64,000 nucleotides of DNA from Candidatus Uhrbacteria bacterium (GTDB taxonomy: Bacteria; Patescibacteriota; Patescibacteriia; JACQRZ01). The notes under the pieces were generated by a model. The model did not search any database, was not told the origin of the DNA, and worked only from the letters and a program-made list of their open reading frames with translations. The translations under genes and the position numbers were made by a program. Of this stretch, positions 13,224 to 55,582 are shown piece after piece (positions within the stretch are counted from its first letter, which is position 1; each line of letters starts with the position of its first letter). The stretch covers positions 15,473-79,472 of the forward strand of contig JACQSC010000002.1 in assembly GCA_016206155.1 (NCBI GenBank), written 5' to 3'.

Positions 13224-15689
13224 ATGATGAGGCATAAAAACAGTGCAAGCTATAACCACGCTCACATCGAGCAGAAGTGGCAAGAATACTGGCGCGATCA
13301 TCAGACGTTTGCCGCCGCAAACGACTCACCAAAGGAAAAAAAATACATCCTCGTTGAATTTCCCTATCCATCCGGCGAAGGTCTTCATATGGGTCATTTG
13401 CGTCCGTACACGGCCGGCGACGTGATGAGCCGTTTTTGGCGCATGAGAGGATGCGAGGTGCTTTATCCTATGGGCTGGGATGCATTTGGCTTGCCAGCGG
13501 AGAATTACGCCATAAAGAAGGGAGTTCATCCCAGTATTTCGACTGAGCAAAATATCAAAAACGCAAAAAAGCAGCTCCAGAGCTGGGGAATGAGTTTTGA
13601 CTGGAGTCGTGAGGTGAATACCACCGATCCAGCATACTATCGATGGACCCAGTGGATCTTTTTGCAATTCTGGCATGCCGGACTGGCCTACGAGGCGGTA
13701 GGTCTGATTAATTGGTGTCCCAAAGATAAAACAGGACTTGCCAACGAGGAAGTTATTGATGGACGCTGCGAGCGATGCGGCGCAAAGGTTGAAAAAAAAG
13801 AACTGCGCCAATGGTATCTCAAAATTACGGCCTACGCCGAAAAATTGCTCACGGGCCTGGACCAGCTGCGGCAATGGCCTGATGCGGTCAAGCTTCAACA
13901 GGAACATTGGATCGGAAAAAGCGAAGGCTCCATGATTGACTTTCGCATCAAAAACACCACCCTGACCGTTTCGGTGTTTACCACGCGCCCCGATACGTTA
14001 TATGGCGTCACCGCTCTTGTTCTTGCGCCCGAACATCACATCATCAATGAACTCAAAACGCCGATCGGAAATATCCGCGAGGTGCGCGACTACATCGAAA
14101 AAGCGCGCAGCGCCTCTGACACAGAACGACTGGCAACAACACGCAAAAAAACCGGCGTTCCTCTCAAGGGCATCATGGCTATACATCCTGCGACAAAGGA
14201 GGAAATTCCACTATGGACCGCCGATTATGTCCTTGCGGCGTACGGCACAGGCGCTGTCATGAGTGTGCCGGCGCACGATGACCGCGATTTTGCTTTTGCA
14301 AAAAAATACGACCTTCCCATGAAAATCGTCATTATGCCTGATGATGCGCACGCCATTCTTTCCCGCGCGCGCCAGAACATAGCATATACCGGTTCTGGGG
14401 TGATGGTCGCTTCGGGTCCTTTTACCGGCATGCCATCGCAGGAAGCAAAGGACGCTATTGTAAAACACGTAAAGGGAAAGCGAGTCGTTCAGTACAAATT
14501 GCGCGATTGGGTATTTTCTCGACAGCGGTATTGGGGAGAACCAATCCCCCTCATTCACTGTTCAGCGTGCGGAATCGTTCCTGTTCCCGAAAAAGATTTG
14601 CCTGTCACTCTTCCAGACGTGGAAAAATATGAACCAACAGGCACGGGCGAATCTCCGCTCGCGGCAATTGAGGAGTGGGTGAACACGTCCTGCCCTCGCT
14701 GTAAAGGACGCGCGCGCCGTGAAACAAACACGATGCCGCAATGGGCGGGAAGCTGCTGGTACTTCCTGCGTTATACTGATCCGCATAACGCCGCCGCTTT
14801 TGCCGATAAAGAGGTCATGAAACAGTGGCTTCCCGTAGATATATACTTCGGCGGTGCGGAACACATAACGCTTCACCTCCTCTATTCCCGTTTTTGGAAT
14901 CTTTTCCTTTATGACCAACAGCTTGTTCCCGTGAAAGAACCATACACTCGCCGCGCCATTCACGGCATCATTTTGGGACCCGACGGAGAGAAAATGAGCA
15001 AAAGCCGCGGGAACGTCGTGAACCCGAACGATCTCGTATCGTCCTATGGCGCAGACACCGTCCGCATGTATGAATTGTTCCTCGGACCCCATGAGGCAAC
15101 GGTCGCATGGAATGACAATGGAATCATCGGGATCCGGCGCTTTATCGAGCGCGTATGGCGACTGTATGCCGACTGTTTTATCGATGACGAAAGTGCATCG
15201 ACGCCGCCTTCCCCAATGGCGATAAAAAGCGTTCATCGCGCAATAAAAAAAGTAACCGACGACATCAATGCAATGAAATTCAATACGGCCATAAGCGCCA
15301 TGATGATGTGCGTCAACGAACTGTACGATGCGTGCAGTGAAAAAAAACATTCCCTCCCCAAAGAACTTCAAGGGGCCTTCGTGCGCATCCTCTCTCCGTT
15401 CGCGCCGCATATCGCGGAAGAACTCTGGCGTATGATGGGACATCAGGGCACTCTTGCGTATGAGCCGTGGCCATCATATGATGAAGCGCTGATCAGAGAG
15501 GCTATGTTCACCCTCGCGGTGCAAATCAACGGCAAAACCCGCGACACCTTTGCGTGCGATGTCGGCACGAGTGAAAAAAAGCTAATCAGTCTAGCGCGTG
15601 AACGGCCGAAAGTAAAAAAATGGATCGAAGGAAAGAACATTAAAAAAACGATTTATATTAAGGGGCGATTAATCAATCTGATCATATGA
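13224..15689 (+). CDS. leuS: leucine--tRNA ligase
   Basis: 'PYPSGEGLHMGHL' HIGH region, 'KMSKS' signature, editing-domain sized insertion, 821 aa. Confidence 0.95.
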   Translation: MMRHKNSASYNHAHIEQKWQEYWRDHQTFAAANDSPKEKKYILVEFPYPSGEGLHMGHLRPYTAGDVMSRFWRMRGCEVLYPMGWDAFGLPAENYAIKKGVHPSISTEQNIKNAKKQLQSWGMSFDWSREVNTTDPAYYRWTQWIFLQFWHAGLAYEAVGLINWCPKDKTGLANEEVIDGRCERCGAKVEKKELRQWYLKITAYAEKLLTGLDQLRQWPDAVKLQQEHWIGKSEGSMIDFRIKNTTLTVSVFTTRPDTLYGVTALVLAPEHHIINELKTPIGNIREVRDYIEKARSASDTERLATTRKKTGVPLKGIMAIHPATKEEIPLWTADYVLAAYGTGAVMSVPAHDDRDFAFAKKYDLPMKIVIMPDDAHAILSRARQNIAYTGSGVMVASGPFTGMPSQEAKDAIVKHVKGKRVVQYKLRDWVFSRQRYWGEPIPLIHCSACGIVPVPEKDLPVTLPDVEKYEPTGTGESPLAAIEEWVNTSCPRCKGRARRETNTMPQWAGSCWYFLRYTDPHNAAAFADKEVMKQWLPVDIYFGGAEHITLHLLYSRFWNLFLYDQQLVPVKEPYTRRAIHGIILGPDGEKMSKSRGNVVNPNDLVSSYGADTVRMYELFLGPHEATVAWNDNGIIGIRRFIERVWRLYADCFIDDESASTPPSPMAIKSVHRAIKKVTDDINAMKFNTAISAMMMCVNELYDACSEKKHSLPKELQGAFVRILSPFAPHIAEELWRMMGHQGTLAYEPWPSYDEALIREAMFTLAVQINGKTRDTFACDVGTSEKKLISLARERPKVKKWIEGKNIKKTIYIKGRLINLII

Positions 15690-20269: not shown

Positions 20270-20346
20270 TGGCGGGCCGTACGGGATTCGAACCCGTGCT
20301 CTATCGCGTGACAGGCGATTGTTTTAACCGGCTAAACTAACGGCCC
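20270..20346 (-). tRNA. tRNA-Asp (anticodon GTC), CCA encoded
   Basis: Reverse complement 'GGGCCGTTAGTTTAGCCGGTTAAAACAATCGCCTGTCACGCGATAGAGCACGGGTTCGAATCCCGTACGGCCCGCCA': anticodon stem ATCGC/GCGAT, loop CTGTCAC. Confidence 0.85.
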
Positions 20347-20351
20347 ATGGA

Positions 20352-21350
20352 TTAAAATTTTTCAAATACTACTTTCTTTCGCGGGAGAAATAACTCACTT
20401 TTCATAGATGAATACATATATGTATAGAGACGCCTTGAATCATGAATAGAAAAACGTAAGTTAAAACCATCTCCTTCGGATATGCTTCCGCCCGCTACTA
20501 CTCTGTATTTTTTAAGGACCAAAAAGATTTGTTCGAGAATCTTTTTCCCGCCTGACGTGAATCCGGAAGCAAGTACTCGATTTTTCTTTCTACGTCCTTT
20601 CCTAAAATACTCATAGATAACGACATGACCACATCCATCAAAATAGCCTCGTAAAAAATGGCAGAAAAATTTATGGGGGACGGCAGGAAGCTGAACAATC
20701 AGGCTTTTGCGAACGATCATACCGAATGCGCTGAGATTCTTAAAAAGTTTTTTACTACCAATTTGCAAACGGTAACAGTCTTTCGCCCTTCTTGTTCTGT
20801 CGCGTTCGTGCGGTTTCACGCCGATCGAGTGATTGGAACCAAGGGCATCTCTAATTTTCTCAATGATTGCCCGATCGCATGAGGTAAATTCAATATATTT
20901 GCTTCCTCGCGGATTGACTGTCAAATTTCCGTCTGCGACAAAAAACCCGAGTACATACGCCATCTCCTCTGACCATGTTTCAAAGAACGATTGATTTACC
21001 TTCCATGGAAATTCCCTTTTAACCTTCGGCTTCGCGCGCGGCCCCTTACGTGGCCCAGTATTAAGGAGATTCAAGTTCGTAAACCGAGTACACGACTGGC
21101 TTGGAATATGAAGCTTATGAAACCATCTGGTTACGGTGCCTCGCGGCAGACCAACTTTTTTCCCAATCTCACTGTGTTTGAGATTTTCATCCCAGTGCCA
21201 GTAATAAAAAAGTTGATGAACTGGCGTTCTCCACTTTTCCTCAATGGCGGTCAGTCGAGGTGAGTGCACGATTTGCTGCATGGGAATCCCAAAAAAGATA
21301 GATACATTATACCACCTTTTTTTCTTTCCGCAATACCCATACCAATCCAA
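20352..21350 (-). CDS. free-standing LAGLIDADG homing endonuclease with two motifs and an N-terminal HTH region
   Basis: Motif 1 'YVLGFFVADGNL' and motif 2 'FLRGYFDGCGHV'. The gene lies immediately upstream of tRNA-Asp. Confidence 0.7.
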   Translation of the reverse strand: MDWYGYCGKKKRWYNVSIFFGIPMQQIVHSPRLTAIEEKWRTPVHQLFYYWHWDENLKHSEIGKKVGLPRGTVTRWFHKLHIPSQSCTRFTNLNLLNTGPRKGPRAKPKVKREFPWKVNQSFFETWSEEMAYVLGFFVADGNLTVNPRGSKYIEFTSCDRAIIEKIRDALGSNHSIGVKPHERDRTRRAKDCYRLQIGSKKLFKNLSAFGMIVRKSLIVQLPAVPHKFFCHFLRGYFDGCGHVVIYEYFRKGRRKKNRVLASGFTSGGKKILEQIFLVLKKYRVVAGGSISEGDGFNLRFSIHDSRRLYTYMYSSMKSELFLPRKKVVFEKF

Positions 21351-27396: not shown

Positions 27397-28446
27397 TCAT
27401 CTTCCAACCCCTTCGGGACCATATGGATTTTGACGACTGTTATATCTGCCTCCTCTTCCACCAGGCTGACTTCCTTGAGCTGGTGGTGTAATGTTAACAG
27501 GCTGCGGCTGCTGAGATGGCGGAGCTTTTGTGGTAAATTGATACGGTAGATTCGATTGATCATACAATTTTTGCGAATACGTCTTCGTCGCAGGATCGAA
27601 CCCCATGAATAAAAATTGATACGTCGTGTTTGGAGAACGATTTTTTATCACAACACGATGATTTTCTTGTGCACGATTACTGTCTGAGTATACAGATTCA
27701 CCATATTCACTCCCACCTCCTTTTAACCAAATCAGCCAACTAATAATCGGCTTGCTTGTCTGCCATGTAATTGTAGCGGTTGTGTCGGTTGTTTGCACCA
27801 CCTGCACATCACTGTATGACACGGAAGAGTTGTCTGGCACGGCAGTGGGGGTGGATGGCGCGCCATAAGCATCGTACTTATTACCAAAAGCATCGTACTT
27901 CTTATTCAAAAATTCTTCCGACGATTTTTTCGGGGGGAGTGTAGTAAATTGAAATATTGGGAGACTCAATTGTGCTTGAGCGGCTAACCCGCTATCCGGT
28001 GGTTTGCTACCATATGCATAAAGCGTAAATGTGTATTTTGTGTTTGGGGAAAGATTTTTTATCTCAACACTATGATCTTCTTGAAATGATGGATAACCGC
28101 TATCGTATTCCCAGTTCCCATAATTATTATCAGACTCTTTAAGCCACCGCAGAGAACCAGCAACCGGCGGAGTTGTTTTCCATTTGATAACCGCGGTTGT
28201 GTCGGTTTTTTGCAATTTCACATCATGGAAAATAACATCTAAAAGAGGTGCGCATGCTTTCGCTCCTGGTGATCCATCAAGATTCGGGACTTCCTCAAGA
28301 CAAAAATTTGTGACCTTTCCTCTCTCTCCCTGTATCACCTTTATTACACCTGCAGCTGCCGCAAGGGAAGCCGCGCCTACAGCAATGGCAACAAGCGTTT
28401 TTACATACGTACTGGTCCCGATGGACGTTTTTGTCTGTATGCTCAT
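27397..28446 (-). CDS. secreted or membrane-anchored protein with two internally duplicated fibronectin-III-like domains and a Pro/Gln/Gly-rich tail
   Basis: N-terminal signal/TM 'VKTLVAIAVGAASLAAAAG'. Duplicated blocks 'TTAVIKWKTTPP...KNLSPNTKYTFTLYAYG' and 'TTATITWQTSKP...KNRSPNTTYQFLFMGF'. Confidence 0.5.
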   Translation of the reverse strand: MSIQTKTSIGTSTYVKTLVAIAVGAASLAAAAGVIKVIQGERGKVTNFCLEEVPNLDGSPGAKACAPLLDVIFHDVKLQKTDTTAVIKWKTTPPVAGSLRWLKESDNNYGNWEYDSGYPSFQEDHSVEIKNLSPNTKYTFTLYAYGSKPPDSGLAAQAQLSLPIFQFTTLPPKKSSEEFLNKKYDAFGNKYDAYGAPSTPTAVPDNSSVSYSDVQVVQTTDTTATITWQTSKPIISWLIWLKGGGSEYGESVYSDSNRAQENHRVVIKNRSPNTTYQFLFMGFDPATKTYSQKLYDQSNLPYQFTTKAPPSQQPQPVNITPPAQGSQPGGRGGRYNSRQNPYGPEGVGR

Positions 28447-28618
28447 ATTAATATTACTTTATTTTTTATTGACATATTAATTAGCGTGTAGATGAATAGT
28501 AGATACTTTTTGGTATTGCACACGATAATACGTTCCTTACACATTCCATAATCATCCTTGACTATCTTCATCTCAAACAAAGGTTTTTGTGCTAATAAAT
28601 AAATTTTCATTCCCTTCT

Positions 28619-29659
28619 TCAGTGAATGTCTGCGTGTTCAATCCCAATCCATTCGGCAACTATTTCCTTTACATCTTCAACTCTTACGGTGACTAATTCC
28701 TCATCGCGATGTTCATATACTTTTTTTGCCGCGCCATGCAAAAGAGCAGCGGCATGTTCATGCGCTGAACCTCGTTCAACATTTAGTTTTGCCGCGGCCT
28801 CGTCCATAATGTCAATAGCCTTATCGGGCAATCGCCGACCTTTTATATATTCTTGAGAGAGCCGCACGGAGGCAACAATAGCCTCGTCGCTTATCTTCAC
28901 TTTGTGATAATCTTCATATTTCCCCTTAATTCCTCGTAAAATTTGTATTGATTCATCAACAGTCGGCTCATCGACGAGAACTGCTTGAAAACGACGATCC
29001 CAGCTCTCATCAGGCTGAATGTACGTCTCGTACTCAGCTTTTGTCGTCGCACCGATAAGCTGAAGATCTCCACGAGCAAGTGCGGGCTTAAGGATATCGG
29101 ATAAACTTATAGCGCCCTCAGTTCCTCGCGTCTGTGATATCGTATGAATTTCATCAATAAAAAGAATAATGGTACGCTTGCTTCTTTGGATTTCCTGTAC
29201 GATTCTTTTAATTCGCTGTTCAAACTCTCCCCGATATTTCGTTCCTGCAAGTAACTCGGAAACCTGTAGAAGAAGAACACGTTTGTTGCGTAAAATTTCC
29301 GGCACCTCAGCGCGCGCAATACGTTGTGCCAAACCTTCAACCACCGCGGTTTTCCCAACTCCGGGCTGTCCGACTAAAATAATATTATTTTTTGTCCTGC
29401 GTGATAAAATTTGTGCGGCGCGCATAATCTCATCCGATCGGCCAATAACTGGATCAATCGTGCCTGCGCGTGCAGCTATCGTAAGATCGGTCGCATAGAT
29501 ATCCAGCGTCGGCGTCTGTGTTATATAACCGCCAATTCCTCTCTTCTTGAGGTAATAACCAATACAAACAATAATGCCCAATATGACAAGCCACTTTATA
29601 AATTCATCTGTAAAAACAGGGAGGAACGTTTCCATACACATGGCGCGCGCCGCGCCCAT
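28619..29659 (-). CDS. membrane-anchored AAA+ ATPase corresponding to the Clp/Hsp100 D1 module only
   Basis: N-terminal TM helix, then 'IGRSDEIMRAAQILSRRTKNNIILVGQPGVGKTAVVEGLAQRI', 'TKYRGEFE' and '[10 protein letters not shown]', which are ClpA/B/C D1 signatures. No Clp N domain and no D2 module. Confidence 0.65.
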   Translation of the reverse strand: MGAARAMCMETFLPVFTDEFIKWLVILGIIVCIGYYLKKRGIGGYITQTPTLDIYATDLTIAARAGTIDPVIGRSDEIMRAAQILSRRTKNNIILVGQPGVGKTAVVEGLAQRIARAEVPEILRNKRVLLLQVSELLAGTKYRGEFEQRIKRIVQEIQRSKRTIILFIDEIHTISQTRGTEGAISLSDILKPALARGDLQLIGATTKAEYETYIQPDESWDRRFQAVLVDEPTVDESIQILRGIKGKYEDYHKVKISDEAIVASVRLSQEYIKGRRLPDKAIDIMDEAAAKLNVERGSAHEHAAALLHGAAKKVYEHRDEELVTVRVEDVKEIVAEWIGIEHADIH

Positions 29660-45250: not shown

Positions 45251-45331
45251 TTTGCAGTCTTTGTACAACGGTATTGCGTATTTCGAATGAGTTTGATATA
45301 TTTACATAGTACATAATCGAACTTCGATTCT

Positions 45332-46090
45332 ATGTTGATAAAAGAAAAAGAGAAAAGGCAGGCCATTTTACTAAGAAAGCGGGGTAAAAGTTATAGCGAA
45401 ATACAAAAAGTAGTTGGCGTCTCTATGTCAAGTATAAGTTTGTGGTTGCGAAATGTTCCGCTCAGTAAGAGGCAAAAAGATCGTTTATTTCGATTAAAAG
45501 TGCGGGGGGCAAAAAATGGGGGTGGCAAAAAAAAGCACCTTCAGAGATTGTATGAATCAAAAAAAATTATAAGGTCGGCCTGGGATGAATTTCCTAAAAA
45601 AATTTCGAGTCCACTATTTTTATTAGGTGTTTCCCTTTACTGGGCGGAGGGATCAAAAGCGGACGAAAAAATGTCTCTAAGCAATTCTGATCACCTTATG
45701 ATAGAATGCTTTATGAAGTGGTTAAGAGAGGTATGCGATGTTCCTGAAAAAAAGGTGCGCGTTCATCTTCATATTCACTCGCTCCACTCAAAAAAAGGTA
45801 TAGAAAAATATTGGTCCCGCATCACACACATTCCCTTAAATCAGTTTATAAAGACCTATGTAAAAACGACTTCACTGGGACACAGAAAAAACATACTCTA
45901 TAATGGTACTTGTACTGTCAATGTCCATGATGTAACATTGTATCGAAAAATGATTGGGTGGCAATTGGGCTTACTGGAATATTTGAACCTTATTTCCCCG
46001 TCAGAGAATGAAAAAAATTGTATCATCGACCGCATCATAAAAAAAAGAACAATGAAACAGATAGCGAGCACTCTAATTGTGCGCCCATAG
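45332..46090 (+). CDS. HTH-containing protein, possibly a degenerate LAGLIDADG-type homing endonuclease
   Basis: N-terminal HTH 'KSYSEIQKVVGVSMSSISLWLRNV'. 'LLGVSLYWAEGSKAD' loosely resembles a LAGLIDADG block. The stop overlaps the tRNA-Arg 5' end by 10 nt. Confidence 0.35.
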   Translation: MLIKEKEKRQAILLRKRGKSYSEIQKVVGVSMSSISLWLRNVPLSKRQKDRLFRLKVRGAKNGGGKKKHLQRLYESKKIIRSAWDEFPKKISSPLFLLGVSLYWAEGSKADEKMSLSNSDHLMIECFMKWLREVCDVPEKKVRVHLHIHSLHSKKGIEKYWSRITHIPLNQFIKTYVKTTSLGHRKNILYNGTCTVNVHDVTLYRKMIGWQLGLLEYLNLISPSENEKNCIIDRIIKKRTMKQIASTLIVRP

Positions 46091-48865: not shown

Positions 48866-50627
48866 GACTGTTACCAAAAAAGACATTCTGAAAATCTATT
48901 GGCGCGCGTGCCGCAATCACAAGCCTTCGCTATTCCTGGCCGTGCTTGGCGTTGTCAGCGGAGCCGTCGTATGGATTATCTATCCAATCTACTACAAGGA
49001 GCTCTTTGATCTTCTTGCGCAGTCAGAATCCCCGGATACGCTCTATCCGCAACTCATGCATATTTTTTTCACCCTTCTCTCCGTGTCAATTCTGGCCTGG
49101 ACGCTTCATCGCATCGCTGATTTTGGCAACAACGTCTTCCAAACAAGCGTAAAAGCGGATCTCAAAGAACACGCCTTTAGCGCGCTTCTTCATCATTCAT
49201 ACGCCTTCTTCGCCAACTCATTTGCGGGAGCGCTTGTTCGCCGCGTTCATCGACTTTCCTCAGATGGTTTTGAAGTCTTTGCCGATCGCATGCTCTGGAC
49301 GCTTCTTCCCCTTGCTGTGCAGCTTGCCGGCATTGCGATTGTTTTGTCTCTCAATCTTCCTGTCTTTGCTGTTGCGTTTATCGTCTGGTTTGTGATTTTC
49401 GCCGCAGTCCAAACTTCACTCTCAATCTGGAAGATGCGCTACGACAAAATCCGCGCGGAACGTGATACGGAAAGCACCGCGATTCTTTCTGACGCGCTTG
49501 CCAACCATACGACCATCCAGCTCTTTGCCCGCAAAAAATATGAGTTCAAAAAATTTCGAGAGATCAATCAATCACTACGAAGCATGATGCTCTTTACCTG
49601 GAATCTGAGTGCGATAATCGATGCGGTTCAATTCATCCTCTTCATGGTCATTGAATTTGTCGTACTCTATCTTGCGCTTGGCGCGTGGCGAGACGGGTCA
49701 ATCACGATTGGAACGTTCGTCCTTGTCCAATCCTATATGATCCAGATTTTTGGGCGGTTGTGGGATTTTGGCAGAGCGGTGCGCAGCATCTTTACAAGCT
49801 TCGCCGATGCAAAAGAGATGGTTGAAATAATGCTCAAGCCAGTTGACGTCACGGACACGCCAGGAGCAAAAACCCTTCACGTCATGCATGGCGAAATTGT
49901 CTTTGATCGCGTTTCATTCTCCTACCAAAAAACACGGCGGGTACTCAACGCATTCAGCGGCACCATTCGGGCCGGCGAGCGAGTCGCCCTTGTCGGCCAT
50001 TCCGGCGCGGGGAAATCAACAATTGTGAAGCTCCTGCTCCGTCTTCACGATCTTGAGAGCGGGAAAATACTGATTGACGGACAACATATCCAGAAAGTAA
50101 CTCAAGACAGTCTTCGCGCATCAGTTGCCTTTGTCCCCCAAGAACCGCTTCTGTTCCATCGGACGCTTATGGAAAACATCCGCTACGGCCGCCCTGATGC
50201 GACCGATGATGGGGTCGTCAGGGCTTCGCGCTTGGCGCACTGTGATGAATTTATTCATGATCTTCCGGAACGCTATGACACGCTCGTTGGTGAACGTGGC
50301 ATCAAACTCTCTGGTGGCGAACGCCAACGCATCGCGATTGCGCGAGCGATCTTAAAAAACGCCCCCATCCTCGTTCTTGACGAAGCGACTTCAAGTCTGG
50401 ACTCAGAGTCGGAGATGATGATTCAAGATGCGCTTGCGGCATTGATGAAAAACAAAACAACAATCGCCATTGCGCACCGCCTCTCGACGATCAAACAGAT
50501 GGATCGTATCCTGGTCATTGATGAAGGCAAACTCATAGAAGAAGGCGCGCACGAAGAGCTGATTAAAAAGCGGGGAAGCCTCTATGGGAAGCTATGGAAA
50601 CTTCAGTCCGGTGGATTTCTTGCATAG
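48855..50627 (+). CDS. ABC exporter, fused permease and ATPase (MsbA/type I exporter-like)
   Basis: Six-TM N-terminal domain and a C-terminal NBD with 'GHSGAGKST', 'LSGGERQRIAIARA' and 'ILVLDEATSSLD'. Confidence 0.85.
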   Translation: MRGMTVTKKDILKIYWRACRNHKPSLFLAVLGVVSGAVVWIIYPIYYKELFDLLAQSESPDTLYPQLMHIFFTLLSVSILAWTLHRIADFGNNVFQTSVKADLKEHAFSALLHHSYAFFANSFAGALVRRVHRLSSDGFEVFADRMLWTLLPLAVQLAGIAIVLSLNLPVFAVAFIVWFVIFAAVQTSLSIWKMRYDKIRAERDTESTAILSDALANHTTIQLFARKKYEFKKFREINQSLRSMMLFTWNLSAIIDAVQFILFMVIEFVVLYLALGAWRDGSITIGTFVLVQSYMIQIFGRLWDFGRAVRSIFTSFADAKEMVEIMLKPVDVTDTPGAKTLHVMHGEIVFDRVSFSYQKTRRVLNAFSGTIRAGERVALVGHSGAGKSTIVKLLLRLHDLESGKILIDGQHIQKVTQDSLRASVAFVPQEPLLFHRTLMENIRYGRPDATDDGVVRASRLAHCDEFIHDLPERYDTLVGERGIKLSGGERQRIAIARAILKNAPILVLDEATSSLDSESEMMIQDALAALMKNKTTIAIAHRLSTIKQMDRILVIDEGKLIEEGAHEELIKKRGSLYGKLWKLQSGGFLA

Positions 50628-50630
50628 AAT

Positions 50631-51869
50631 GTGATATACAGTGAGTATATGACAGAGCACATGTACGAGAAACAAATTGCAGAGCTCGGCGATGAAATGG
50701 ATAAAAAGCTCAAAAAACTATCGGAAGCTGATAGTTTACCTTCGGAGGAATTCGTTGCGCGCGCATGCATCCTGCGCGCCGCCTTGCAAGACGTATATGC
50801 AAACGCGCGCGGCGAAACCCCAAACAGCGTGTTTGAACTTCAAGCTCTTTTGTCATCCGAAGAAGCGCGCAATGAAAAGGAGCGTGGAGAATTCCGCCAT
50901 ATAAGCGTTTTACCCGACACACTCAAGGAGGAGATTGTCATACGCGTCGCGTCATTACTGCGTAATCATCCCCCCTATGATACGATTGCCTATCCCCCCA
51001 TGATCCGTGAAGCAACGGGTCTAACCGGCAGCAAACGACAATATTCAGAGTCACTCGAGCGAGATTTAGAACAAGCTGATGTTTCCAGCCATGTTCTCGC
51101 CTTTGTATGGGGTGAACGCATACGCGCGGCTGTCAGTACAATGCTGTCAACGAAACTCTGTGAGTTGCTCAACAAGCACGTGGATCTATCGGTTGGCGGT
51201 TCACCGGAAGCGTTTTGGCGTTTGCAACTTCTCGGCGTACGTCAGGACGAAGAGTATGTGGAGTACGGTCTTCTCTTTCTTCAAAAATTTACCCAACGAA
51301 TGAACGCTCTGACACAGAGAAGCGCGGAGATGTTCTATGGTGATGAAGCGGCGCGTGCGCTTCTGCTCTGGAGGGCGCTTCTTTCAGTAAAACGGGGAAC
51401 CAAACCAATCAAAGAATTCCGTCAAGCATGCGCTTCCGCTCTTGTGTACCACCGCTATAGCGAGGCAGAGGAGGAGCTGAGTCGCGCGGTCGCCAAAACG
51501 CCACTTCTATTTACTGAAGCGCAACGAAAGACATTCCATGCAAAGCGCCTCATCCCGGCAGAACCGAAAACGCAAGAGCAGCCCCTTTCTCTGTATCAGC
51601 AACGCACACGCGAACAACTTTCGCGTATCGAAACATTTGTTGGAAAAACGTTTGTATCAAAAAAAGGTCATCTCTGGCATGTTGTCAAGGCAGGACTTGA
51701 AGTAGTTTATGGCCAGCGGGGTTTTCATCCCGGAGTAAAACTTTTGAAGTTTGGAACAAAAAAATATCCTCGCGTCAACCCAACGTACGCCCCTACAACA
51801 TATTTGTCCCCAAATGAGTTTTTGGGAAAAATGGAGCGGGAAGAATGGAATGAATGGAACCCGAAATAA
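50631..51869 (+). CDS. hypothetical protein (412 aa), translationally coupled to the ABC exporter
   Basis: Starts 4 nt after the exporter stop. No recognisable domains, predicted soluble. Confidence 0.35.
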   Translation: MIYSEYMTEHMYEKQIAELGDEMDKKLKKLSEADSLPSEEFVARACILRAALQDVYANARGETPNSVFELQALLSSEEARNEKERGEFRHISVLPDTLKEEIVIRVASLLRNHPPYDTIAYPPMIREATGLTGSKRQYSESLERDLEQADVSSHVLAFVWGERIRAAVSTMLSTKLCELLNKHVDLSVGGSPEAFWRLQLLGVRQDEEYVEYGLLFLQKFTQRMNALTQRSAEMFYGDEAARALLLWRALLSVKRGTKPIKEFRQACASALVYHRYSEAEEELSRAVAKTPLLFTEAQRKTFHAKRLIPAEPKTQEQPLSLYQQRTREQLSRIETFVGKTFVSKKGHLWHVVKAGLEVVYGQRGFHPGVKLLKFGTKKYPRVNPTYAPTTYLSPNEFLGKMEREEWNEWNPK

Positions 51870-51899
51870 ATCCGCCACTAATGCGCATGGCCGAGATCC

Positions 51900-54452
51900 T
51901 CAGATCATTTTTTGCTGTCCGCTGTCTGGTTTTTTGATGTTCAAATGCTCATACGCACGATCGGTTGCGATACGTCCGCGGGGAGTGCGATTAAGAAATC
52001 CGATTTGCAATAAAAACGGTTCACAGACCTCTTCCACGGTTTCCATCTCCTCGGCAATGGATGCGGCGATCGTGTTTAGTCCTACGGGGCCGCCGTTAAA
52101 TTTTTCGATGATTGTGTGAAGAATTTTTCGATCAACTGCATCAAGCCCCTGCTCATCAACGCCAAGCTTGTGCAATGCCTCTGATGTTTGTGTATGACCA
52201 ATAGTGCCATCACCTTTGATCTGCGCGTAATCGCGTACGCGCTTAAGCAAGCGATTTGCAATACGCGGTGTTGAGCGGGAGCGGCGAGCAATCTCTTCTG
52301 CCGCTGACTGATCTATCGCTACGCCTAAAATTCGTGCTGAACGCTCAACGATCTGCATAATCTCTTCCGAGGTATAAAAATCAAGATGAAAAAGCGTGCC
52401 AAATCGATCGCGGAGCGGACCCGTTAGCAAACTCATGCGCGTGGTTGCACCCACAAGCGTAAACTTAGGGAGGTCAAGACGAATGGTGCGCGCGGACGGC
52501 CCTTTCCCGAGTACGATATCAAGCGCATAATCTTCCATCGCTGGATACAGCGCTTCGGAAATGCTTTTTGACAAACGGTGAATCTCATCGATAAAAAGAA
52601 TGTCACCATCAGAGAGGTTGGTCAGAATCGCCGCCAAGTCACCAACTCGCTCAAGCGCTGAGCCGGATGTCACGCGCACCTGCACCCCGCGCTCATTGGC
52701 GATGACGTGTGAAAGTGTCGTGTTGTGATTCACGAACGAGTTTGCGACGAATGAATGTGTTTTGGGTACACAAAAATCATAAACCTCTGCCTTCTGATGT
52801 TCAATGGAAGAGATACTATCCCAGTAGTATTGTGGATCCATCAGCGCCTTTAACGTTGAAAATTCTTGATTCATTTTAGCTGAATCTGGAAGAAGGGCAA
52901 GATATTTTTCTATCGTAGTGCGAGAAAAAGATCTATCTTCATTTCTTGCATGTTGGAATCTATGATGCAGATTACGAGGATGGGGACGAGTCGCGGTAAG
53001 AATTTTGTAGAGGAGCGACGAGGCGTACGGAACGACCTCTGAACGAGAAAATCCACGTTTACTGCTTTTTAATATTGAAAGTCGCTCTTGCTTCCTTCTC
53101 AGTCGAAAACCTATCGTTTTATAAAAAATTTCTGCATTTTTTCCACCCACAAACAACTGCCAATATCGTTCACCCTTTACTATTTTTTTCTCACGGTGCG
53201 CGATGATGCCAAAATTTGCAAGAAGAATTTGAGTTTGCCGTGCAAGAACGGTGGATTTTGTATAGAAATCAACATAGCCATCACACCGAGCTGAACCATC
53301 GGCGTCAAATAAACCCTGAAAAAAACCACATACAACGCGCGCGGGGCTTTTCAATATTGCTGACGGGATACTTTTTTCTGCCGCTCGTGCCGGATGTATG
53401 CCAAGGGAAATCAAAAGATGTCCAAAATTTTGACTAAATCGCATCCGCGGAGCTCTATTTTCATAAACCCCAAGACTGGGAGTCCAGCCAAATTGTTCCC
53501 TGATAATCCTGCTTATTTCTTGCTGGATGTCTTTTTCGCTTACGGTAATATCGCACGCTGGATAATTCATCTGAAATTCAAAATGACCATCGCCGATAAG
53601 AAGGCCAATCACATATGCGAGATCCTCATTGACAACATGTGGTTTTTTCCATCTTAATGCGCTTATTTCTAATGATGGGGCTTCATACAGTGTACTCTTA
53701 ATCTTTCTTCCATCACTGAGAGATAAATTCAATCTGTGGGCGGTAATGGGAATGGTAATATTTCTTCTCACTGCTCCAGCATATGCATATTCAAGCTCAT
53801 GAGCTGTTGGAGCTCGTTCAAGCGCCTGAACAAGAGCGGCACGCAACGAGACTGTGCGATGTTCTGTATGCTCTTTTCTCTGTGCGGGACTATAATACAG
53901 CGGCTCAAAGTCAATAGTTTGCGACGGTCCCCAAAGATGAGTACCCCGCATGATCGCAACATAGTCAGTTTGAGAAATTGCAGCGAGATTTTTCCACTGC
54001 GGTCCATTGGGGGTTGCGATGAGGACTGGATGATTAACCGTGCCTTCAATCTGAAATCCCGATCTGGTTGTGATCCGAATGGTTTGCCGGTATCCCCCGT
54101 AATAGATATGCGATGTATTTTCGAGACCCTCGCGACCATAAATATTTAAAGAAAGTGGTGCGTACGAATCCGAATTAAGGGGACGAAGAATAAAATCCTG
54201 AATGTGAAAGATGCCCCGATCGCTTAAGACAAGGCTATCCCCAGTAATACATTTCCCCAAGCCAGGCGCGCCGGAGAGAAGAACGTGCTCAAGCGGCTCA
54301 TTGCGCTGTTTTGATGCTTCGATAAAAATTTCGAGTGATTCTCGAATCTTTATCTGGCCGATGTATTCACGCAGAGTCCGCGGACGCAAGGTGGCATCGT
54401 CGCTCGACTCATCGGTCTTTGCTTGTTGTGCTGAAAATTCCTCGTCGCTCAT
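51900..54452 (-). CDS. ruvB: Holliday junction helicase RuvB interrupted by a 510 aa intein
   Basis: Extein: 'SGAPGLGK | [10 protein letters not shown]...[10 protein letters not shown]...' is the RuvB Walker A/B and sensor region. The 67 aa N-extein plus 273 aa C-extein give 340 aa, a normal RuvB size. Confidence 0.9.
52722..54251 (-). other. intein with a LAGLIDADG homing-endonuclease domain, inserted in the RuvB P-loop between GLGK and TT
   Basis: Starts '[10 protein letters not shown]' (Cys1) and ends 'SFVNHN' before Thr+1. Endonuclease motifs '[14 protein letters not shown]' and '[15 protein letters not shown]'. Confidence 0.85.
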
Positions 54453-54838
54453 ACTACTGGTATATTCATCTTCTTTGCAATCTGCTTAAGTTGACGATCA
54501 AATGTAACGACGGAAAGGTTCATGCGCTGCGCGCGCATGAGAAGGGTACTATCAACAAATGAAATGCGTTGTGGAAGTGAGGCAAAAAAAGTAATTTCAT
54601 CATCGAGCCATTCACCGAGCATCGTCATGTGATCTGATTGAACAAGGTATTCCAAAAACAAATCCGCCTGCTCTTTTGAATGTTTGTATGTTAGCACTGT
54701 CGCAACCTCGCCAACTGCGCCAGAAGTAATATACAGCGTTCCGTTCAACACTTCCATCAGATGTACCGCATCCTGATGGTTGGCATCAAAATCCAAAAAC
54801 AATGCGACGAATATCGAACTGTCAACGAGATACGCCAT
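54449..54838 (-). CDS. vapC: PIN-domain toxin (VapC-like)
   Basis: '[14 protein letters not shown]...D' N-terminal PIN acidic residues, about 130 aa, downstream of an AbrB-type antitoxin. Confidence 0.65.
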
Positions 54839-55076
54839 AGACGATAGTGTCAACGTTCTCGCTTGTGCATTGCTTCTTTTTCTTCGTGGGAATAACAAAC
54901 TGCCTCCACTGTTGAGCGCGAGGTGTTCGCGGCAGTACGTGCTTAATAAGAATAGTCGTCTGTTCTTGTCCGATAAGTACCGGCGTTCCCTCTTTGAAGC
55001 GAAGATTGCGTGTAATCGTACGGGGCAGGCGAACCGCCAAACTATTGCCCCATTTTTGAACTTTTGTCTGTTCCAT
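54822..55076 (-). CDS. vapB: AbrB/MazE-type (SpoVT-AbrB fold) antitoxin, VapB-like
   Basis: 'MEQTKVQKWGNSLAVRLPRTI' is the swapped-hairpin AbrB motif. Overlaps the PIN gene start. Confidence 0.65.
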   Translation of the reverse strand: MEQTKVQKWGNSLAVRLPRTITRNLRFKEGTPVLIGQEQTTILIKHVLPRTPRAQQWRQFVIPTKKKKQCTSENVDTIVYGVSR

Positions 55077-55129
55077 AGATGTGTTCGATAATGTATATAC
55101 ATATAAGTATATACATATGATTCTGCTTG

Positions 55130-55582
55130 TCAAGTGAACAAATGAAATGTAAAAACAATGGCGTTCTTAGGAATAAGCTTACTGACCCGTTCGGGCCACT
55201 CAACCGCAGTAAGGGTATGCGCATCTCCAATATACTCCACGGCACCAATCGCGGCAAGCTCGGCGGATGAGGAAAGGCGATACGCATCGATGTGGCAAAG
55301 CTGAGTGATGTTGTTGATCGGTTTTGGCAACGCATAAATTTTCATCAACACAAACGTTGGGCTCGTAATCTGCTCCGCGATGCCAAGCGCTTTTGCAAGA
55401 CCTTGCACAAATGTTGTTTTGCCAGCGCCAAGATCTCCGGATAACGCAAGCACATCGCCGCCGCGCAATTCCTTAAAAATCTTTTGTGCGAGAAGATGAG
55501 TCTGGTGAGCAGAACGAGTTTTATATACCTTCTTACTGCCATTGCTTTCGATGGTAATCGTCCGTTCATTCATAGTTCCCAT
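55130..55582 (-). CDS. tsaE: tRNA threonylcarbamoyladenosine biosynthesis protein TsaE (YjeE)
   Basis: '[26 protein letters not shown]' P-loop typical of TsaE, about 150 aa. Confidence 0.8.

Follow-up and report, generated by a model that had tools for sequence, protein, structure and literature searches.

A predicted class-1 intein with a nested LAGLIDADG homing endonuclease divides the ATP-binding loop of RuvB in a Candidatus Uhrbacteria bacterium

Why does the ruvB gene of a Candidatus Uhrbacteria bacterium encode 850 residues, and what is the segment that divides the ATP-binding loop of its product? We addressed this question in a stretch of 64,000 nucleotides, referred to below as the window, which covers positions 15,473 to 79,472 of contig JACQSC010000002.1 (assembly GCA_016206155.1); all coordinates are those of the window. 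The ruvB precursor is a single unbroken open reading frame (ORF) of 850 amino acids (aa) with an ATG start, located on the minus strand at 51900..54452. Both NCBIfam RuvB equivalogs matched it over their full length (NF000868, 480.5 bits, cut-off 282; TIGR00635, 434.7 bits, cut-off 299). Pfam analysis returned RuvB_N in two stretches divided by the insertion, together with AAA_lid_4 and RuvB_C, and the identical NCBI protein is named RuvB (Candidatus Uhrbacteria bacterium). Translation placed the junctions at GAPGLGK/C (residues 67/68) and VNHN/TTLSH (residues 577/578; the slash marks the junction here and below), giving an insert of exactly 510 aa. The insertion point lies in frame between the Lys and the Thr of the Walker A motif (GAPGLGK/TTL), and taking the 510 aa out leaves a 340-aa protein that aligns end to end with ordinary RuvB. 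A first reading made from the letters alone (the sequence-only reading) had proposed an intein at 52722..54251 within an 850-aa ORF, a 510-aa insert beginning with Cys, ending with His-Asn before Thr+1 and containing two LAGLIDADG blocks. These coordinates and lengths proved exact on translation with nothing to correct, the terminal residues were seen in the translated ORF, and the two blocks were located at 53580..53624 and 53286..53327. We consider it very likely that the insert belongs to the canonical class-1 inteins and has a two-motif LAGLIDADG homing endonuclease nested in it, with splicing, nuclease activity and homing as predicted activities. Its parts are as follows.

51900..54452 (-): ruvB precursor ORF, 850 aa, comprising N-extein, intein, C-extein and stop (ORF list, RuvB equivalogs, NCBI match)
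54252..54452 (-): N-extein, RuvB residues 1-67, with the Walker A sequence GAPGLGK at its end (translation; flank as in intein-free Patescibacteria relatives)
52722..54251 (-): intein, 510 aa, Cys1 to His509-Asn510, precursor residues 68-577 (junctions, family models, structure matches)
51900..52721 (-): C-extein, residues 68-340 of the spliced RuvB, from Thr+1 (the Walker A Thr), with stop (translation; RuvB_N 577-690, AAA_lid_4, RuvB_C)
53937..54251 (-): HINT N-terminal lobe, intein aa 1-105, with block A (TIGR01445; matches to the Mxe GyrA and DnaB mini-inteins; modelled as all-beta, with the model confidence given below)
54021..54059 (-): block B, T71 and H74 (C1, T71 and H74 in 48/48 family members)
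53637..53936 (-): helical accessory region and flexible linker, intein aa 106-205, helices 122-144, 150-158 and 166-173 (predicted from the model)
53097..53636 (-): LAGLIDADG endonuclease core, intein aa 206-385, two alpha-beta-beta-alpha-beta-beta-alpha halves (PF14528, model, Foldseek)
53580..53624 (-): block C, first LAGLIDADG motif (VIGLLIGD221G), intein aa 210-224, with Asp221 (motif reading)
53352..53384 (-): block D (EK293SIP), with Lys293 (motif reading)
53286..53327 (-): block E, second LAGLIDADG motif (QGLFDAD318G), intein aa 309-322, with Asp318 (motif reading)
53196..53246 (-): block H (LLANFGI) (motif reading)
52833..53096 (-): helical accessory domain, intein aa 386-473, helices 385-470, predicted local distance difference test (pLDDT) about 89-96 (model)
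52722..52832 (-): HINT C-terminal lobe, intein aa 474-510 (TIGR01443; DnaB intein 4o1r aligned through VHN)
52722..52787 (-): blocks F and G, with Asp492, His509 and Asn510 (motif reading, family conservation)

All ten classical intein and endonuclease blocks could be read in the sequence. The splicing element was recognised by Pfam Intein_splicing (E=1.7e-12, above the gathering score) and by the NCBIfam models intein_Nterm (TIGR01445, 27.1, cut-off 24.5, aa 1-78) and intein_Cterm (TIGR01443, 22.5, cut-off 15.6), with further partial matches to models of intein-containing GyrA, DnaB, RFC, RNR, RNA polymerase A'', IF-2 and V-ATPase. Matches to sequences of solved structures comprised the Thermococcus litoralis VMA intein (7qss), the DnaB, GyrA and RadA mini-inteins and PI-TkoII. 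The marks of a class-1 intein were all there: Cys1, T71-V-N-H74 in block B, Asp492 in block F, His509, Asn510 and Thr+1. A check of splicing blocks A, B, F and G found each of them with its catalytic residues, conserved across 48 diverse family members, and a search for lost splice-junction residues found these residues intact and conserved. Cys1, Thr71, His74, Asp318, Asp492 and His509 were invariant (48/48), and Asp221, Lys293 and Asn510 were each kept in 47 of the 48, the exception at Asn510 being a terminal Asn-to-Thr change. The deviations of the window copy from the family in the HINT domain were conservative.

An AlphaFold2 model of the intein, built on a 15-sequence intein alignment, had a mean pLDDT of 89.4 and a predicted template modelling score (pTM) of 0.87. 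The modelled order is HINT (1-105), helices with a floppy linker (106-205), the nuclease (206-385), a second helical region (386-473) and the closing HINT strands (474-510), with a pLDDT >90 over both HINT segments of the predicted structure. The first helix of each nuclease half ended at Asp221 and Asp318, respectively, in the model (DSSP). When the model was compared with the PDB using Foldseek, the top matches were endonuclease-bearing inteins, namely TliVMA (7qss, E=3e-25), PI-TkoII (2cw7), PI-PfuI (1dq3), PhoVMA (7qst) and PI-SceI; I-DmoI and WhiA matched the nuclease core only, and Mxe GyrA matched the HINT part with a root mean square deviation of 2.2 A. The two helical regions differ in how they can be placed. 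Accessory domains connecting the homing endonuclease and HINT are described in VMA-b inteins (PMC8966425), and comparison suggests that aa 386-473 probably correspond to this connecting domain. Region 106-205 is conserved throughout the RuvB intein family, the pLDDT of its linker (aa 181-200) is 54-56, and the region is possibly in contact with DNA.

The nuclease itself was recognised as LAGLIDADG_3 (PF14528, E=1.5e-15, above the gathering score); a match at this level, like that of Intein_splicing, lies far outside what chance would give. Of the 50 core positions with conservation of 90% or more among the other copies, the window copy deviated at only two, both conservatively (L to V and L to F), and because of this it appears to show no sign of decay. 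Conservation of the nuclease residues across phyla would imply that the nuclease is in use, and on these grounds the window intein may still be able to home. Homing has indirect support from the intact motifs and from a distribution that is sporadic and disagrees with the host phylogeny. We also compared the homing-site DNA of 30 intein-bearing alleles: it was conserved only where the amino acids demand it, with variable wobble positions and no extra nuclease footprint.

How far does this element extend beyond the window? An intein-only protein search retrieved, besides the identical NCBI protein, some 38 RuvB proteins of about 850 aa; their inteins share 41-52% identity with that of the window, and all have the form G[LV]GK/C...HN/TTL. 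The RuvB intein family aligns to the window intein from end to end at 39-52% identity, with lengths of 501-519 aa. A scan of one genome per GTDB species using the 15-sequence intein alignment as query found 33 further RuvB-intein loci, none of them in Patescibacteria; the same scan with the single intein sequence found nothing. The hosts were Anaerolineae, Thermoflexales, Caldilineaceae, Roseilinea, Chloroflexia, Rhodothermales, Salinibacter, Salinivenus, Rubrivirga, Blastocatellia and Abditibacterium, together with one Heliobacteriaceae bin and one 'Thermotogae' bin. The GK/TTL insertion point was shared by all 30 GTDB-genome loci examined in detail and by all 38 aligned relatives from the protein database. 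About 70 public RuvB sequences from several phyla thus carry a homologous intein at the same site. When a library of 1.84 billion proteins clustered at 50% was searched, 400 representatives matched the intein at E<=1e-30 and 6,992 at E<=1e-3. A phage vector was considered and rejected: viral contigs held only distant relatives of the intein (<=36% identity) and no RuvB allele, and its PHROGs matches were generic intein or terminase families.

Several relatives were altered in their nuclease or splicing parts. One protein (P0005) carries D221N, two (P0016 and P0035) have a damaged second motif, and most of the nuclease is gone from two inteins of 404-408 aa (P0039 and P0042). A Chloroflexia copy (L029 3001..4525) is frameshifted, and a Rhodothermales copy (L032 3001..4521) ends in His-Thr, an Asn-to-Thr change. 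The nearest relatives outside RuvB (P0040, P0041 and P0043-P0047) likewise sit in phosphate-binding loops. Their hosts include an AAA ATPase (P0040, GCGK/T), a RecA-like protein (P0047, GSGK/T), another protein with GGGK/T, P0045, taken as a terminase from its GWGK/T loop alone, and the S-adenosylmethionine synthetase MetK (GGGxF/SGKD).

The spliced 340-aa sequence was used as a query for RuvB proteins free of the insert. Among the best 120 of the 8,000 RuvB proteins retrieved, identity ranged from 61 to 89%, length was roughly 320-395 aa, and no protein contained an intein domain; the named members belong to Uhrbacteria, Falkowbacteria, Buchananbacteria and 'Patescibacteria group'. Two close relatives (88%; contigs L076 and L077) share with the window the same neighbourhood, tsaD-tsaE-ruvB...hypothetical 410 aa-ABC transporter. 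The protein sequence flanking the junction (SGAPGLGK/ onward) is identical to that of an intein-free relative, and the alignment is continuous over GK/TT. The sequence-only reading had asked whether ruvB is intein-free in close relatives, and had named as a refutation a relative carrying the segment as a native domain. The intein is missing from all of the best 120 extein matches, two of which are syntenic, and no relative was found with the segment as a native domain.

The exteins and the intein have different affinities. The exteins of other intein-bearing RuvB proteins are only 55-60% identical to those of the window, and these proteins match named genomes outside the candidate phyla radiation (CPR) far better than the window protein. 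In neighbour-joining trees, which are distance trees without bootstrap and are indicative only, the window C-extein fell within the intein-free Patescibacteria clade and the window intein on a long branch beside a Chloroflexota group. Composition sets the intein apart as well. Its GC content is 0.43 and its GC content at third codon positions (GC3) is 0.357, against a GC3 of 0.503 for the exteins; the 38 other long ORFs of the window have a mean GC3 of 0.502 with a standard deviation (SD) of 0.057, placing the intein 2.6 SD low (z = -2.6). Since the intein is absent from close relatives, has its own relatives in other phyla and has a low GC3, lateral acquisition from an unsampled source is the best reading of its origin. 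It would be less economical to suppose that this lineage kept the intein over a long time while its sisters lost it.

The Walker A Thr binds nucleotide and Mg2+ in P-loop nucleoside triphosphatases. Because the insertion lies between the Walker A Lys and Thr, the +1 nucleophile is this Thr itself. We propose that translation of ruvB yields a precursor of 850 aa in which the insert divides the ATP-binding loop, and that this precursor would be inactive as an ATPase, binding no ATP until splicing restores the loop. Splicing would start with an N-S acyl shift at Cys1, helped by Thr71 and His74 of block B, followed by transesterification onto the hydroxyl of Thr+1, cyclisation of Asn510 helped by His509 and Asp492, and a final O-N shift. 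The predicted products are a normal 340-aa RuvB with its GKT loop restored and the excised intein as a separate protein of 510 aa. Either this excised protein or the precursor would act as a site-specific endonuclease that cuts intein-less ruvB in the sequence coding for the P-loop, recognising a roughly 40-bp intein-less target across the junction. The reconstituted intein-less site reads GGCGCGCCTGGCTTGGGGAAA/ACGACACTTTCACACGTCATC at the junction, or, in a second written form, ...CTCTCCGGCGCGCCTGGCTTGGGGAAA/ACGACACTTTCACACGTCATCGCC.... Repair of the double-strand break would then copy the intein into the cut allele. This Uhrbacteria lineage may have gained the element by lateral transfer, or may be the only one to have kept it.

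Could the 510 aa be a native domain that is never excised, or an assembly chimera? Apart from the unusual length of the ORF, nothing favours either idea. The splice sites have their full set of conserved residues, the reading frame continues through the junctions, the segment is missing from orthologues exactly at GK/T, and homologous insertions occupy the same site in some 70 independent sequences from several phyla. In addition, a separate Logan assembly (SRR12113422, 4,959 bp) is 100% identical to window positions 50594-55552, including both junctions. We regard this explanation as having practically no chance of being right; the intein-free orthologues and the identical independent assembly effectively rule it out. 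A less distant alternative, possible although we think it unlikely, is that the intein splices and is no longer mobile, the nuclease being kept only for folding of HINT or for DNA binding, as precise loss from an essential site would be hard. The homing-cycle model predicts such a state after fixation (PMC8966425), five relatives (P0005, P0016, P0035, P0039 and P0042) show nuclease decay, no invadable intein-free allele of the same population was seen, and the window copy stands on a long isolated branch. Against this, the window copy has kept the two catalytic Asp residues, Lys293 of block D and block H, with its two conservative deviations at 50 conserved positions, and its low GC3 suggests a residence too short for amelioration. 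It is considerably less probable that the intein now serves its host as a post-translational switch, with splicing conditional on redox state, temperature or DNA damage. The P-loop of the precursor cannot be intact, the site has the same Walker A motif as those of RadA and DnaB, at which conditional splicing is reported (PMC4513877, PMC6195587), and Cys1 could in principle form a disulfide with another Cys, located in block F (VYDFCVP). However, about half of the family has Val in place of this block F Cys, all close relatives do without the intein, so the host lineage does not need it, and an intact homing nuclease with a sporadic distribution fits a selfish element.

A splicing and homing intein acquired laterally is the reading that we prefer, and four points weigh against it. 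The searched literature contains no experimental splicing or cleavage of any RuvB intein. Even the closest relative of the intein shares no more than 52% identity with it, too little for measuring recent purifying selection on this copy. The window intein is more AT-rich than every sampled relative (GC 0.45-0.76), and because of this no sampled lineage appears plausible as a recent donor. Finally, a co-conversion tract was sought around the insertion: the protein flanks equal those of intein-free relatives, and DNA identity to the two intein-free orthologues examined is flat at about 73%, with neither dip nor peak. Because of this flat identity and the identical flanks, intein invasion left no visible trace, in a comparison that the divergence of the orthologues makes uninformative.

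A bolder reading, to which we give only a small probability, takes the window intein as the only sampled copy from Patescibacteria (CPR), recording a cross-phylum transfer into an ultra-small and probably host-dependent bacterium, and in its stronger variant as an element retained as a splicing-dependent control of recombination. If this were true, the intein or an unsampled low-GC donor could serve as a marker of the DNA-exchange or attachment partners of Uhrbacteria.

Other features of the locus were recorded alongside. Between tsaE and ruvB lie a MazE/AbrB-type antitoxin gene (54822..55076, minus strand) and a PIN-domain toxin gene (54449..54838, minus strand), and the stop codon of the PIN gene and the start codon of ruvB overlap in ATGA. 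In the two intein-free relatives tsaE directly adjoins ruvB, with no toxin-antitoxin pair between them, so both this pair and the intein are lineage-specific insertions in the ruvB locus of the window. The gene immediately downstream of ruvB (50631..51869, plus strand) encodes a protein of 412 aa for which Pfam gave no match. A 410-aa protein without a recorded Pfam match (L077 2743..3975) takes the equivalent position by the ABC transporter in a relative and is likened to it by size and place only. The relatives carry an MFS transporter gene between the 410-aa protein and ruvB, which the window lacks.

A search of all six-frame ORFs of the window with a hidden Markov model of the intein family recovered no other intein; its only further match was a free-standing LAGLIDADG ORF. 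This encodes a 332-aa LAGLIDADG_3 protein (20352..21350, minus strand; Pfam E=1.9e-10; PHROG 4645 'endonuclease', E=1.5e-33) with a helix-turn-helix-like stretch at its N-terminus, and adjoins tRNA-Asp (20270..20346, minus strand). Its first motif is MAYVLGFFVADGNL and its second FLRGYFDGCGH, in which the usual catalytic Asp is apparently replaced. Its GC3 of 0.42 lies below the window mean, it is not close to the intein nuclease (21.8 bits), and the ORF is not within an rRNA gene, as the window contains no rRNA. Three other ORFs of low GC3 (0.36-0.39 against a window mean of 0.50), located in 27400..29659 (minus strand) and 45317..46087 (plus strand), may be further foreign or accessory genes.

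What does this locus add to known systems? The intein goes unmentioned in the annotation, which calls the 850-aa product plain 'RuvB', so the mature protein would be the 340-aa form. An apparently intact nuclease with a 40-50 bp target in a universally conserved gene is a candidate rare-cutting enzyme. The window intein is a well-preserved addition to the pattern of inteins in the P-loops of replication and repair ATPases, and this mobile element reaches the reduced genomes of Patescibacteria; current understanding of inteins is unchanged. P-loop (Walker A) inteins are described at site a of the archaeal RFC small subunit, site a of MCM, site b of DnaB and others (PMC4760082). The sequence-only reading had called the P-loop a classic insertion site, which this documented pattern bears out. 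It had also called an intein in the branch-migration ATPase of a reduced genome notable. This holds for the unusual host lineage and not for the rest, since P-loop inteins are documented, RuvB is a listed host and about 70 copies share the site. Table 1 of a 2018 review (PMC5874633) lists RuvB among the intein hosts; our literature search found it only as this table row, and no paper specifically on a RuvB intein or on inteins in Patescibacteria.

The other RuvB inteins (Chloroflexota including Anaerolineae, Thermoflexales and Caldilineaceae; Rhodothermales, Salinibacter and Rubrivirga; Blastocatellia; Abditibacterium) share with the window intein the host protein, the G-x-G-K/T-T-L site and the HINT / helical / LAGLIDADG / helical / HINT architecture. 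Unlike them, the window copy is hosted by a Patescibacteria (Uhrbacteria) RuvB whose nearest relatives are intein-free, stands on a long separate branch and has the lowest GC (0.43). The RadA intein of Pyrococcus horikoshii and the P-loop inteins of RFC, MCM and DnaB interrupt Walker A motifs as in the window, in different hosts. Conditional splicing has been shown experimentally for the RadA and DnaB inteins, unlike for RuvB. The RFC intein model NF003159 is colinear with the window protein over the junction between N-extein and intein (residues 21-167 aligned to model positions 18-167). PI-SceI, PI-PfuI and PI-TkoII combine a splicing domain with a two-motif LAGLIDADG nuclease as the window intein does, at 11-14% identity and with other accessory domains and other hosts. 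The best match in the PDB, by structure and by sequence, is the VMA-b intein of T. litoralis (7qss). It sits in the P-loop of an ATPase, combines HINT, LAGLIDADG and accessory domains, keeps both catalytic Asp residues and has an active homing endonuclease (PMC8966425). It differs from the window intein in its archaeal V-ATPase host and its length (429 versus 510 aa), shares 19% identity with it, and lacks the extra helical region (aa 106-205) that precedes the nuclease in the window intein. Collectively, these comparisons indicate that the RuvB intein of the window would be unusual only in its host lineage and in the cross-phylum transfer that this implies, and otherwise belongs to a known type.

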